Of a stretch of DNA of 64,000 bases, positions 23,785 through 29,412 are shown piece after piece. Origin of the DNA: Candidatus Hydrothermarchaeota archaeon (lineage in GTDB: Archaea > CAYFZR01); contig JBHIEG010000006.1 in NCBI GenBank assembly GCA_046760505.1, forward strand, positions 20,924 through 84,923, read 5' to 3'. The position numbers and the translations under genes are program-made. Under the pieces are notes generated by a model. It was not told the DNA's origin. It ran no database searches and saw nothing but the letters and a program-made list of their open reading frames with translations. The number at the start of each line of letters is the position of its first letter. The first letter of the stretch is position 1.

Positions 23785-24903
23785 CTAATCAATTTCTATT
23801 ATTTCATATTCATCAGAGCCAAGATTATGATTCTTAGCGGCTTGTAATTGATAGTCCGAGTGAGTCCAATTGAATATGGACCCAAACTTCTCTCCGGATA
23901 TTCCCTGAGCCATAGAATTCGGTAAACAGGGACTTTCATTTACAAAGTCTATGGAAGCCTTTTCTATCGCAAGTATATCTTCAGAGGCTAAAATACCGAC
24001 GTCAGGCACGATTGGATTATCTGAATAAGGACAGCAATCGCAGTGGGGTGTTATATCGAGTAAAAAATTGAAGAAGACGAAGTTTTCTTTTCCTACAAGT
24101 TTAAAAACTGCTTTTGCACAGTCTATAATTCTTTCTGATAGATCTTTTCCGGTTATCCATTTTAATACTATCGCATTTTCCCTACATACTTCAAAGCATC
24201 CGTTGCACTTAAGGCACAATGAATCAACTACCTTGTATTCTTGAATGGCATTCCCAGGACATATATCCACGCATTTATCGCATCTTGTACATAGATTCTC
24301 ATCAATTACAGGGAGTTCGTATAGATGGATATCGAACTTAGATGGTTTTGCAATACATCCAACACCTATGTTTTTTAGTGCTCCTCCAAAGGCTCCTCTG
24401 AAATGTCCCTTGAAGTGCGCTAGAGATATTACCTTGTCTACTTCATCAAAGATTTTGGCGACATATACTTTCTTTAGGTGAAAACCATCCACTTCAACCT
24501 CTATGTAATCAAATCCCTTCAATCCATCCGCTATTATTATGGGTGCGCTTAAAGTTTGAGATGTATATCCGTTTTCCTCAGCAATCTTCATCCTTCCTAG
24601 GGCAAAACTTCTGTCATCTGTAAAGCCTAATCCTGTTGTCTCCGTTACAAAAGGTTCACCGCCCTTTTCTTTCACAATTTGTGCAATCTTTCTGATATAT
24701 ACGGATCTAAGGGGTTTTGTGGTTCCGTGCACGCCGAAGTGTGTCTTTAAAGCGACAACATCTCCTCTTTCGATAAAGTCTAATATTCCACTTTTTCTTA
24801 TTAGCCTCTCTAACTTATTTACCATGCTCAAATGCGGCTGATACCATCTTTCAGGCGTTTCTACGGGAGCACGAGAGTTTGCAAAGAAGACTTTGGCTCC
24901 TAT
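23785..24903 (-). CDS. DUF362 family Fe-S protein with 2x[4Fe-4S] domain (proposed ATA start)
   Basis: ALKTHFG, IIIADGLKG, AHFKGH...GGALKNIGVGC, CDCC; the ORF extends to IGAKVFFANSRA, with ATA at 24903 after GGAGG. Confidence 0.88.
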   Translation of the reverse strand: MGAKVFFANSRAPVETPERWYQPHLSMVNKLERLIRKSGILDFIERGDVVALKTHFGVHGTTKPLRSVYIRKIAQIVKEKGGEPFVTETTGLGFTDDRSFALGRMKIAEENGYTSQTLSAPIIIADGLKGFDYIEVEVDGFHLKKVYVAKIFDEVDKVISLAHFKGHFRGAFGGALKNIGVGCIAKPSKFDIHLYELPVIDENLCTRCDKCVDICPGNAIQEYKVVDSLCLKCNGCFEVCRENAIVLKWITGKDLSERIIDCAKAVFKLVGKENFVFFNFLLDITPHCDCCPYSDNPIVPDVGILASEDILAIEKASIDFVNESPCLPNSMAQGISGEKFGSIFNWTHSDYQLQAAKNHNLGSDEYEIIEID

Positions 24904-26021
24904 CTTTTTCCCCTCCTTACGTGTAGAAATGTGAGTATAAATGCAATCAAGAATATAAATGAAATACTGATCAGCATCAGATAAAACTTCTTTTTTTCCC
25001 TCTCTCTTTCTTTTTCCTCTTGAATTCTCTTCTCCTCTACTTCAGATATTTTTTCCTCGAGTTTTTTCTGTTCTTCTTTAAATTTTTGGATTTCTTCTTT
25101 GGTTACTTTCTGCAGGTAAAGCAATGCTGATGTTTTTAGTTTCGTAGCATTTTTCTCTATTTTATTTGCAATTGATTTGGCTTTAAGCGAATAATTTAAG
25201 GCTAAGTCGTATTTTTTAGATTCCTTTAATTCCTCTGCCTTCATTATGAGCTCTTCCGTGGTCCAGTAACTTTCGTTTAATTCTTCAAGTGTTTTATAGT
25301 AAGTGCTAGAGTTGGTTAGGTTTCTATGAATGGTTGAAATTACAGATCGAGCCTCTTCAAGGCTGATTCTTGCCTCTTCTAGGCTATCTTTAGCCTCTTT
25401 AATTCTTTTGTTGGAGAGTTCAAGAAACTTGCCATATTCTATGTAGAATTCAAGTTTATCTAAGGGGGTAACCTTTTCATCATAAAAGTAAAGCGATAGC
25501 CTACTGTCCTTTATTTCCACCATATCGGGCTCTGGTTTGACCCTACCAATTTGCATATTTTCAGGGATCGTTACCTTGTAAGAAACTCTGAGTATGTATA
25601 AAGGGGAGAATATACTGTCCCTTATGATATAACCCCTTTCTGTCTTGGCTATAAAATCAGATCTTTTATAGTCGATTTCTATGGTCTTAAATTTTTTTGG
25701 CGGAATTGAGGTAATTCTAACGGAGATGCAATTGCCTGTTTCATCCTTGGTGAACGTAACATTGAGTGGAGAGTATCTGCCTGTTAAATTGTGCACGTAT
25801 GCCGATGCATTGTACATGGAACCCATACAGTAGATGAAAGGCGGCGCTAGATGTGTGTAGTTACCGTAAGAATAATTTCCAGTGTTGATATAATTCCAGA
25901 ATTGATTCACATTGGCCTCATCAGGTTCTGCTATATCGATTACATAAACGAAGTTATCTACTATCAATTGAGCGGTTGATACCGATATAGCGAACAACAA
26001 TGCCAAGAACTTAAACCTCAT
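24900..26021 (-). CDS. Secreted/membrane-anchored protein with coiled-coil and C-terminal TM
   Basis: Signal peptide, several N-x-S/T sequons, coiled-coil, TM followed by RRGKR. Confidence 0.75.
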   Translation of the reverse strand: MRFKFLALLFAISVSTAQLIVDNFVYVIDIAEPDEANVNQFWNYINTGNYSYGNYTHLAPPFIYCMGSMYNASAYVHNLTGRYSPLNVTFTKDETGNCISVRITSIPPKKFKTIEIDYKRSDFIAKTERGYIIRDSIFSPLYILRVSYKVTIPENMQIGRVKPEPDMVEIKDSRLSLYFYDEKVTPLDKLEFYIEYGKFLELSNKRIKEAKDSLEEARISLEEARSVISTIHRNLTNSSTYYKTLEELNESYWTTEELIMKAEELKESKKYDLALNYSLKAKSIANKIEKNATKLKTSALLYLQKVTKEEIQKFKEEQKKLEEKISEVEEKRIQEEKEREREKKKFYLMLISISFIFLIAFILTFLHVRRGKR

Positions 26022-26125
26022 AAAACCATCTTCTTTTTCTCATACAACATATTTTTTATCCTAGTGCAAAAGATTTTTATATCCTTTTGCCAATCGCACT
26101 CTTCAGAGATTGAGGGGGAATAAAA

Positions 26126-27757
26126 ATGCAAACAACTGAGGGACAACCTATCTTGATATTACCAGAGGGTTCTGAAAGGTATATGGGAAGAGAAGCTCAA
26201 AGGATGAATATTCTTGCAGCCAGAATTATAGCAGAGGCAATAAGAACTACGTTGGGTCCAAAAGGTATGGACAAAATGTTGGTAGACTCTACGGGAGACA
26301 TAACGATAACAAACGATGGAGCCACGATTTTAAAAGAAATAGATGTAGAACATCCAGTTGCGAAGATGATAATCGAAGTTGCCGAGACCATGGATAATGA
26401 AGTCGGGGACGGTACAACAAGCGCGGTGATACTCACTGGGGAGTTACTTAAAAAAACCGAAGAATTGTTAAACCTTGGCATTCATCCCGCAACCATTGCA
26501 AAGGGATTCAGAATGGCATCTGAAAAAGCAAGTGAAATACTCGATGAAGTATCAAAAACTATATCGATAGAAGACGTTGATGTACTCAGAAACATCGTCA
26601 TGACATCAATGAGTGGCAGATTGGCAGATGAAATAAAGGAAGACCTTTCAAAAATAATTATTGATGCTATAAAGACGATTTCAGAAGAAAAAGATGGGAA
26701 ATACAAGGTAGATTTGGATAATATCAAGATTCAAAAATTTGAGAGCAGTAGTATATCTGAAACCAAACTCGTAGATGGTATCGTACTTGATAAAAAGAAA
26801 GCCCATCCCATGATGCCGAAATTGGTTAGGGATGCTAAAATTGCCCTTATAAGGTCTAGAATGAAGGTTAGAGAAACCGAAATGAAGGCCAAGTTTAGAA
26901 TAACTGATCCAAAAGAGCTTAAAAGATTCTCGGATGAAGAACGCAACATTTTGATGAGCATGTTAAGTAAGATAAAGGAATCTGGAGCAAACGTCGTCTT
27001 ATGCAAAAGAGACATAGATGAAAACTTCCAAGACCTTCTCGCGAGAGAGGGCATTTTTGCTGTAGAGAGAGTTCCAACTTCAGATATAAAGAGACTTATC
27101 CTTGCTACGGGTGCAGAACTTGTTACAAATTTGGAAGATTTATCTAAAGATAATTTAGGACATGCAGACCTAGTTAGAGAAGAAAAAATTGGAGAAAAAG
27201 AAATTGTATTCATAGAAGGGTGCAGAAATCCAAAGGCGCTAACAATACTGGTAAGGGGCAGCACGGGACATATCGTAGACGAAATAGAGAGAGATGTGAG
27301 CAATGGACTGCACGGAGTAAAGGTTTCCATCGAAGACGGAGGCGTTGTTCCAGGTGGGGGCTCTATAGAAGTTGCAATCTCAAGTCAACTCAGAAATTTT
27401 GCCAAGAAGATAGGAGGTAGGGAGCAGTTAGCCATCAATTCATTCGCCGAGGCACTTGAAATTATACCCAAAACCTTAGCCGAGAACGCGGGACTGGATT
27501 CTGTGGATGTACTTCTAAGGTTGAAAGCAACCCAGGAGAAGGGGAAAATTAACTACGGGATCGACGTGTTCACAGGCGAAATAAAGGACATGTTCGATGA
27601 AAATGTACTAGAGCCAAAAAGGGTTAAGTTGCAGGCAATTAAAACCGCAACCGATACCTCAATCATGATATTGAGGATAGATGACGTAATAGCCATAGCC
27701 CCCATAGAGATAGAAGATACAGGATATCCTGGGCCTATGCCTGAAATGGAGTTGTAG
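26126..27757 (+). CDS. Thermosome (group II chaperonin) subunit
   Basis: [36 protein letters not shown]. Confidence 0.96.
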
Positions 27758-28262: not shown

Positions 28263-28263
28263 C

Positions 28264-29166
28264 TTAGACCGCCACTTCTAAATCCAATTTTTCAACGAGT
28301 TCCTTGTATCTGTTTCTTACAGTTACCTCTGATGTTCCAGCTACACCAGCAACTTCTTTCTGAGCTCTTCTCTCGCCTTGTAGAACGCTGGCAATGTATA
28401 TTGCGGCTGCTGCAATTCCAGTTGGGTCTCTACCCGCAATCATTTCTTTTTCTATTGCCAGTTTTATTATGTCAATTGCCTTTGATTGAACTTCTCCAGA
28501 AAGACCTAATTCGCTGGAAAATCTGGCTACATATTCAATAGGACTTGTTGGCATGAGTTTTAATCCCAATTTCCTACCCAGTAGCCTATAGATCTTACCG
28601 AGTCTCTTCTTATCTATTCTGGCTGCCTCAGCAATTTCACCCATGCTTCTCGGTACCTTATGCTGTCTGCATGCAGCGCAGAGAGCTGCTGCTACCACAC
28701 TCTCTATGGATCTTCCTCTAATTAAATCACTTTTTACCGCTTTTCTGTAGGTTAGAGCAGCGGTTTCCTTTACATGTCTTGGAAGATTCAATTGCGATGA
28801 GATGGATTCCAGTTCTGAGAGGGCGAAAGCAAGATTTCTCTCCGTTGCATCGGATAATCTAACCCTCTGCTGCCACTTCCTCAACCTGTATAGTTTGGCT
28901 CTCTGACCTGGCGCGAGCTCGTTACCTCTTCCATCCTTTGTACTGAGGTCTATTGTAGTAGAGAGGCCTTTATCGTGCATCACATAGGTCATGGGGGCTC
29001 CTACTCTACTCTTAACAACCCATTGATGATGGTCGTGAGCCCTCCATTCTGGACCCGTATCAATCATATCGTGTTCAAGAACAAGCCCGCAGGATTTACA
29101 GATTAGTTCCCCTCTTTTCTCGTCCTTCGCTACCTTAGGACTCCCACACTCCGGGCATTTTTCCGT
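28264..29166 (-). CDS. tfb: Transcription initiation factor IIB; proposed ACG start
   Basis: Zn ribbon CPECGS...CKSCGLV in frame upstream of [32 protein letters not shown]; in-frame TAG at 29170-29172. Confidence 0.95.
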
Positions 29167-29412
29167 TTTCTACACCTCCATCTTATTATTAATGTGTTTG
29201 TACTTCTTTATAAAACTTATGTTTCTCCTATACCCCAACGTGATTGTAATATATAAGTCTTTCGGTATAGATATAGATAGATAACCTGCAGAGAATTTTT
29301 GTATAACAAATTTTGCATGATGAATGAAATATAGGGGAATAAAAAACAAATGAAACAAGATTGATTTGATAATTTTATATAACTTTTATATAACTTTATA
29401 TGGATGATCTGA

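Follow-up and report, generated by a model that had tools for sequence, protein, structure and literature searches.

The 64,000-nucleotide stretch analysed here (the window) corresponds to positions 20924-84923 of contig C6 in G000, the metagenome-assembled genome (MAG) of a deep-branching vent archaeon (2.17 Mb in 142 contigs, 38% G+C; estimated contamination, 5.67%). Three conserved genes in the window, namely, rpoK (RNA polymerase subunit K), tfb (transcription initiation factor B [TFB]), and a gene for a DUF362/4Fe-4S protein, have no in-frame ATG, GTG, or TTG, the codons treated here as canonical starts, between the upstream stop and the conserved N-terminus. Each instead has a near-cognate codon, i.e., one that is a single base off ATG. 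These codons (ACG, ACG, and ATA, respectively) stand 7 to 8 nucleotides (nt) behind a GGGGG or GGAGG sequence that resembles a Shine-Dalgarno (SD) site; genome-wide, in our own simple and crude prediction of 2,300 open reading frames (ORFs), GGAGG peaks at a spacing of 7 nt before starts. The description of the three genes in the initial annotation of this DNA, which placed a near-cognate codon at the proper distance from a purine-rich SD site in each, was accurate, but position 29172, where its stated range ends, belongs to the in-frame stop and not to the ACG of tfb. The features of the three loci are as follows.

23785..24903, minus strand: coding sequence of the DUF362/4Fe-4S protein from ATA 24903-24901 (372 codons plus stop; Pfam)
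24900..24902, minus strand: TAG that ends the upstream 373-codon gene and overlaps the ATA (ATAG)
24912..24917, minus strand: DUF362 SD site AGGAGG, with 8 nt between it and the ATA
27742..27744, plus strand: in-frame TGA that closes the rpoK frame upstream (frame reading)
27757..27764, plus strand: purine-rich, SD-like GGGGGAAG of rpoK, 7 nt (from GGGGG) before the ACG
27769..27999, plus strand: rpoK coding sequence from ACG 27769-27771 (76 codons plus stop; Pfam RNA_pol_Rpb6, NF002208)
28264..29166, minus strand: tfb coding sequence from ACG 29166-29164 (300 codons plus stop; Pfam/NCBIfam)
29170..29172, minus strand: TAG in the tfb frame, two codons ahead of the ACG (frame reading)
29173..29179, minus strand: tfb SD site GGAGGTG, its GGAGG ending 8 nt ahead of the ACG

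The start codons of tfb, rpoK, and the DUF362 gene

The 5' end of tfb reads, on the minus strand, GGAGGTG TAG AAA ACG GAA AAA TGC CCG GAG TGT, and the first canonical codon, ATG 29067, lies 33 codons downstream of the ACG. In a TFB started at the ACG, the TFIIB zinc ribbon (PF08271) occupies residues 3 to 43; the protein also has two TFIIB cyclin repeats and matches NF001658 at 457 bits. The ACG is kept in the sister species (G001), where TFB is 97% identical, and the mismatches between the two species from the ACG to the first canonical codon fall 2/2/12 by codon position over 32 codons. An out-of-frame ATG present 8 nt after the ACG in G000 is absent in the sister species. Two other tfb copies occur in G000, both with canonical starts. 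In one of these (C37:9807-10703), which is 85% identical to the core copy and has a near-identical promoter region, an ATG is found exactly at the position of the ACG; it lies on a 13.8-kb contig on which 11 of 16 predicted genes have no match in the sister species; this contig probably represents accessory or mobile DNA, or else a contaminant. The sister species has only one other tfb, at 65% identity. Thus, paralogs with canonical starts do exist, but the ACG copy is the conserved core ortholog.

The rpoK gene is placed 11 nt behind a thermosome gene on the plus strand, and its SD-like site overlaps the thermosome stop (TAG 27755-27757). No ATG, GTG, or TTG occurs in the rpoK frame between the TGA at 27742-27744 and ATG 27841, and this first canonical codon already lies inside the conserved RpoK core. 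The NCBIfam profile NF002208 aligns over positions 4 to 58 of 60, with position 4 falling at residue 5 of an ACG-started RpoK. Again, the sister species keeps the ACG, with GGGGGAGG at the SD-like site, and mismatches from the ACG to the first ATG are distributed 1/1/8 by codon position. rpoK is single-copy in G000. Between rpoK and tfb lies a small cysteine-rich ORF (28008-28262, plus strand; 84 codons, TTG start) with a CxxC/CxxC/CxxH pattern, which is probably cotranscribed with the thermosome gene and rpoK.

For the DUF362 gene, the first canonical codon is TTG 24831, and mismatches from the ATA to this TTG number 4/2/13 by codon position. Here the sister species carries ATG at the corresponding position, preceded by an identical AAGGAGGGG site. 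The support for this start comes from that ATG, because the Pfam domain begins only at residue 50.

The weight given to these mismatch patterns depends on how coding and noncoding DNA differ between the two species. The sister species was the only other species genome of the phylum in the collection searched, and 1.91 Mb of it was compared; 1,588 ortholog pairs were obtained (median protein identity, 82%), of which 1,479 were usable. A search of JGI metagenome contigs for closer relatives gave no TFB match above 63% identity. Upstream coding sequence was sought without regard to codon identity, by scoring codon-position conservation ahead of the first canonical start in the two genomes, followed by Pfam. 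The upstream reach of BLAST high-scoring segment pairs was a poor discriminator and was replaced by the codon-position test because promoter and 5' untranslated regions are conserved between both species. In the usable pairs, mismatches downstream of the first canonical start amounted to about 0.17/0.13/0.41 per codon position, and true upstream regions showed about 0.45 at every position, with no periodicity. Extensions with a log-likelihood ratio of 4 to 8 showed no third-position excess and were taken as conserved noncoding DNA, and several strong extensions were overlaps with neighboring genes or a tRNA gene. The third-position excess in all three genes (2/2/12, 1/1/8, and 4/2/13) therefore marks the upstream codons as coding; as judged from this pattern, the codons between each near-cognate codon and the first canonical start appear to be under purifying selection.

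Assembly artefacts were considered as well. Logan contigs from four runs (four samples of one study; depth, 21 to 37), two of which may be the source of the assembly, span a 4.6-kb stretch covering the loci. They differ from it at 11 single bases, with no indels and with none of the differences at the three start codons, and no ATG was seen there. Two of these contigs represent distinct variants, since both carry other single-nucleotide polymorphisms. The search for sequencing runs covering this DNA listed no RNA run. The frames are likewise intact in the sister species, with the signature of purifying selection. Hence, the three noncanonical starts are not assembly errors. In the same comparison, A and T stand at 24972 and 24978 in the contigs from every one of the four runs, where the window has C and C; both sites lie within the lysine/glutamate-rich 3' end of the 373-codon gene upstream of the DUF362 gene.

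Near-cognate starts and the initiation machinery across the genome

Among 781 SD-supported canonical starts in G000, 519 were ATG, 189 (24%) were TTG, and 73 were GTG. TTG starts are thus frequent, as had been remarked for the window, where 16 of 67 genes have one. SD scoring used what we presume to be the anti-SD string, the 16S 3' end being absent from the assembly. The two-species codon-position search, combined with inspection and with Pfam on 20 candidates, yielded at least 14 genes with near-cognate starts among approximately 2,300 (about 0.6%, a lower bound). They are given below with the codons of G000 and the sister species, in that order.

tfb: ACG, ACG
rpoK: ACG, ACG
MptE-like protein: ACG, ACG
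DUF362 gene: ATA, ATG
Prephenate dehydratase: ATA, ATA
A ferredoxin: ATA, ATA
M50 peptidase: ATA, ATA
DUF255: ATA; no ortholog in the compared part of the sister genome
Phosphoenolpyruvate synthase (PpsA): ATT, ATT
DUF61: ATT, ATT
TBP: CTG, TTG
CDF transporter: CTG, CTG
GT2 glycosyltransferase: ATC, ATT
RNase III-like ORF over the rpoL 3' end: no canonical start for 89 codons; AAG or ATT

The boundary codon differs from ATG by one base in all 14 genes and is preceded by an SD or G-rich site; for 9 of them, beginning at the first canonical codon would remove part of a Pfam or NCBIfam domain. Ten of the 12 near-cognate codons compared are retained between the two species, although third positions differ at about 41%; ACG, which is one transition away from ATG, is unchanged in all 3 genes that have it. 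The sister species has at least one near-cognate start of its own, in a sucD-like gene with ATA where G000 has ATG. The occurrence of three such genes within 4.3 kb exceeds what is expected at the genome rate (rough post hoc P of ~0.01).

A census of SD sites followed by near-cognate codons, which the initial annotation had called for, gave a 1.5- to 2.4-fold enrichment (P values of 0.01 to 0.19 across 18 settings). Because this enrichment is so slight, near-cognate use is limited to a small set of genes, and start selection is not broadly relaxed. Nor do the aIF1 and tRNAs examined give an explanation for a lineage-wide relaxation. The initiator tRNA (contig C38) is ordinary, with a CAU anticodon, A1:U72, and an anticodon stem that contains three G:C pairs; tRNA-Thr(CGU) is a normal elongator tRNA, and no special initiator tRNA was found in the assembly with aragorn. 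Three tRNAs with a CAU anticodon are expected, and aragorn called only two, the initiator and one other. A 94-nt, low-G+C "tRNA-Ile(UAU)" call by the same program looks spurious. aIF1 is present, starts with ATG, and scores within the range of 41 archaea. It has GDQ in place of the usual archaeal GDH, as does one other lineage, and the following helix is less basic; neither feature is decisive.

Three further loci outside the window deserve mention. The RNase III-like ORF listed above (C4:60851-61303, minus strand; PF11469 at residues 30 to 145) overlaps rpoL in another frame and lacks ATG, GTG, and TTG for 89 codons in both species; an AGGAGG inside rpoL is followed by TGA, AAG, and ATT, so that its start is AAG or ATT, or else ribosomes enter it by frameshifting out of rpoL. 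A small MarR/helix-turn-helix-like ORF (C4:1904-2134, minus strand) also lacks a canonical in-frame start and has, in both species, a perfectly SD-spaced ATG one base out of frame, which could reflect a conserved +1 shift or an unusual start. Lastly, on contig C64, 36 highly conserved in-frame codons stand ahead of a radical-SAM-like ORF whose first canonical start has minus-strand index 3989, and the stop ahead is absent or shifted in the sister species; a split or frameshifted gene seems the better description here than a near-cognate start.

tfb and rpoK starts in other archaea

A pooled set of 97 tfb ORFs was assembled from a one-per-family archaeal sample and 80 JGI metagenome loci. Canonical starts were found with an SD site in 76 and without one in 15. 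The remaining six ORFs had no canonical start; two of these belong to the genus studied here, one is cut by a contig end, and three are on related contigs that read AGGAGG, 9 nt, and then ACG ACG. This last arrangement, a Hermodarchaeota-type tfb, served as the query for a second search of GTDB species, in which all 80 loci were examined. No canonical start preceded the zinc ribbon in 21 of the 80. In 14 of 14 Hermodarchaeota/Promethearchaeota species (91 to 100% identity), an ACG stands 9 nt after GGAGG, directly preceded by TAA in 3 of the 14; 10 comparisons over 22 codons, not independent of one another phylogenetically, gave mismatch totals of 30/1/40 by codon position. Three Borr-/Sifarchaeum loci have GGAGGTG and then ATT, one Hadarchaeales tfb has ACG where relatives have ATG, and two Hadarchaeota genes have ATA where a relative has ATG. 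One further Hermodarchaeota tfb lacks a canonical start; two relatives share an ATT-led N-terminus. Even with its bias to relatives of the query, this sample shows at least three independent origins of noncanonical tfb starts.

For rpoK, 3 of 27 archaeal genes had no canonical start, and the two outside the genus (G017 and G034) are ambiguous. In G017 (locus L037, G017:C22), rpoK directly follows the end of a thermosome-like gene (...MPPMG*), and GGGGGA is followed after 6 nt by ATT; an out-of-frame ATG and a C4A6 homopolymer are also present, so that an assembly frameshift is possible. The rpoK of G034 (locus L045, G034:C8) is displaced by 1 nt when set against that of its relative G011.

Interpretation and comparison with known systems

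We consider it likely that near-cognate initiation is the real start mechanism of rpoK, tfb, and the DUF362 gene. In such a mechanism, the strong SD site would pair with the 16S 3' end and set the weak codon in the P site, where the ordinary initiator Met-tRNA (CAU) would read it with one mismatch. The product would be a full-length protein with an N-terminal methionine, made at a yield below that of an AUG start. The weak codon may be kept by selection in a few genes, the synthesis of whose products would be held low or made conditional. That the codon is selected and not simply tolerated is suggested by the retention of ACG in three genes, by the 10 of 12 near-cognate codons retained, and by the recurrence of such starts in tfb.

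Several observations, taken together, weigh against this interpretation or narrow it. In the sister rpoK, a TTG also follows in frame, six codons after the ACG, which makes the start in that species ambiguous, and a start at TTG 24831 would leave the DUF362 domain, beginning at residue 50, intact. The SD-only census gave a weak signal and was rejected as a stand-alone test; the genome-wide set rests on homology and a single sister genome. To call a rate of 0.6% "unusually high" leans on annotated bacterial genomes, with about 0.05% noncanonical starts (bioRxiv 10.1101/063800), and annotation is itself biased against near-cognate starts. In the one-per-family sample (24 ORFs from 30 loci), every tfb outside the genus had a canonical codon in the open frame upstream, and the GTDB sample, seeded with a Hermodarchaeota query, is biased to the relatives of that query. 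That transcription genes are enriched was a post hoc observation. Finally, the N-terminal methionine, the reduced yield, and the regulatory purpose are what we infer from sequence.

An alternative that we regard as unlikely is that start discrimination has loosened throughout the lineage, as might result from a change in aIF1 or the ribosome, and that near-cognate starts accumulate neutrally. The initial annotation had proposed relaxed start selection, and the idea draws some support from the 24% share of TTG, from the turnover between species among the 14 or more near-cognate starts (ATA/ATG, CTG/TTG, and the sucD-like ATG/ATA), and from the GDQ motif of aIF1 with fewer basic residues in the next helix. 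However, only about 14 of some 2,300 genes are involved, SD sites with near-cognate codons exceed expectation just 1.5- to 2.4-fold, and the initiator tRNA is ordinary; aIF1 has a normal score, and GDQ also occurs in another lineage. Neutral accumulation also fits poorly with the retention of 10 of 12 codons, and of ACG in every case, against a third-position difference of about 41%. Moreover, near-cognate tfb starts recur in unrelated phyla, and therefore the gene, rather than the lineage, is implicated. C-to-U editing of the mRNA, which would convert ACG to AUG and CUG to UUG as in plant organelles, would make all three ACG starts and both CTG starts canonical, but it could not repair the ATA, ATT, and ATC starts of at least 8 of the 14 genes, whereas near-cognate initiation covers all cases with one mechanism. 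We know of no mRNA editing system in archaea, and we regard editing as very improbable.

Equally hard to sustain is initiation at the first internal canonical codon, by which the proteins would be truncated, or the genes would be decaying copies, with the upstream codons untranslated. Standard gene callers would indeed pick ATG 29067, ATG 27841, and TTG 24831, and the two other tfb copies in G000 do have canonical starts. Yet the upstream codons evolve as coding sequence, and a TFB begun at ATG 29067 would lose the whole zinc ribbon. Furthermore, the ACG-started tfb is the core ortholog, whereas the C37 copy sits among genes without orthologs in the sister species, and rpoK is single-copy in G000. 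As for an error in sequencing or assembly, or a frame shifted away from an out-of-frame ATG close by, the contamination estimated for this MAG and the ATG 8 nt after the tfb ACG could be cited in its favor; it can nevertheless be all but dismissed, because four separately assembled samples agree without indels, the sister species has ACG in both tfb and rpoK and lacks the out-of-frame tfb ATG, and 14 Hermodarchaeota species show the same tfb design with no ATG nearby.

If near-cognate initiation is accepted, a regulatory role can be entertained. A link to transcription (TFB, TBP, RpoK, and the ORF overlapping rpoL) is suggestive, and the earlier proposal that the transcription machinery is translationally down-tuned gains from the near-cognate start of TBP and from the apparent recurrence in tfb of other phyla. 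That weak start codons deliberately tune transcription genes is plausible, although we would stop short of favoring it. More tentative, and in our view rather doubtful, is the general proposition that archaea repeatedly place basal transcription factors (TFB and, here, TBP and RpoK) under weak ACG, AUU, AUA, or CUG starts, which would couple their dose to the stringency of initiation (aIF1/aIF2) and would have arisen convergently in lineages ranging from a deeply branching vent phylum to Hermodarchaeota and further Asgard archaea, with ACG as a bona fide prokaryotic start. If the near-cognate starts themselves are real, standard gene callers and NCBI translation table 11 would be truncating essential archaeal genes or calling them broken, with miscalls such as a TFB without its zinc ribbon or a 52-residue RpoK, also in the Asgard genomes used in studies of eukaryogenesis. 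ACG, which to our knowledge is not in table 11, would join the natural prokaryotic start codons, and the recurrence in tfb across phyla would point to an unrecognized layer of control on the archaeal transcription machinery. Neither ACG as a natural archaeal start nor near-cognate starts of tfb were reported in the literature searched, which excluded subscription journals and supplementary tables; one Asgard review was silent on both.

The closest bacterial parallel is infC, which encodes IF3 and starts with AUU, together with the rare AUU, AUA, AUC, and CUG starts of other genes. There, too, a conserved essential gene has a weak codon behind an SD site, and translation is low or conditional. 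The infC product itself discriminates against its own start codon, which results in autoregulation. Unlike IF3, TFB, RpoK, and TBP are not translation factors, the DUF362 iron-sulfur protein is not an initiation factor, and aIF1 starts with ATG. According to a survey in Escherichia coli, codons of the AUU, AUA, AUC, and CUG type initiate at about 1 to 2% of the AUG level, and ACG initiates at 0.1 to 1%, with an N-terminal methionine; in the same study, ACG is not among the annotated starts of 34 well-annotated bacterial genomes (Hecht et al., bioRxiv 10.1101/063800).

The editing of ACG to AUG in plant organelles resembles the present case in that a genomic ACG stands at the position of a homologous ATG in conserved genes; it differs in that the ATA, ATT, and ATC starts that co-occur here are not editable from C to U. 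Archaea are generally described as users of AUG, GUG, and UUG, and aIF1 of Sulfolobus solfataricus rejects AUU in vitro (Asano, 2014; PMC4705826). On the other hand, ribosome profiling of Haloferax volcanii placed approximately 30% of putative alternative starts at near-cognate codons (Gelsinger et al., 2020; PMC7261190), and therefore archaeal ribosomes can use such codons. Those sites are alternative or novel ones that the authors set aside, and within the accessible part of that report none is given as the sole start of a conserved core gene.

Eukaryotic near-cognate initiation at CUG, GUG, ACG, and AUU, which is policed by eIF1, draws on the same set of single-mismatch codons, with AAG and AGG essentially absent, and archaeal aIF1 and aIF2 are homologous to the factors involved. 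Unlike in eukaryotes, however, the codon here would be positioned by an SD site rather than by scanning and Kozak context, and the near-cognate codon would be the sole start of the main protein and not that of an extension or an upstream ORF.

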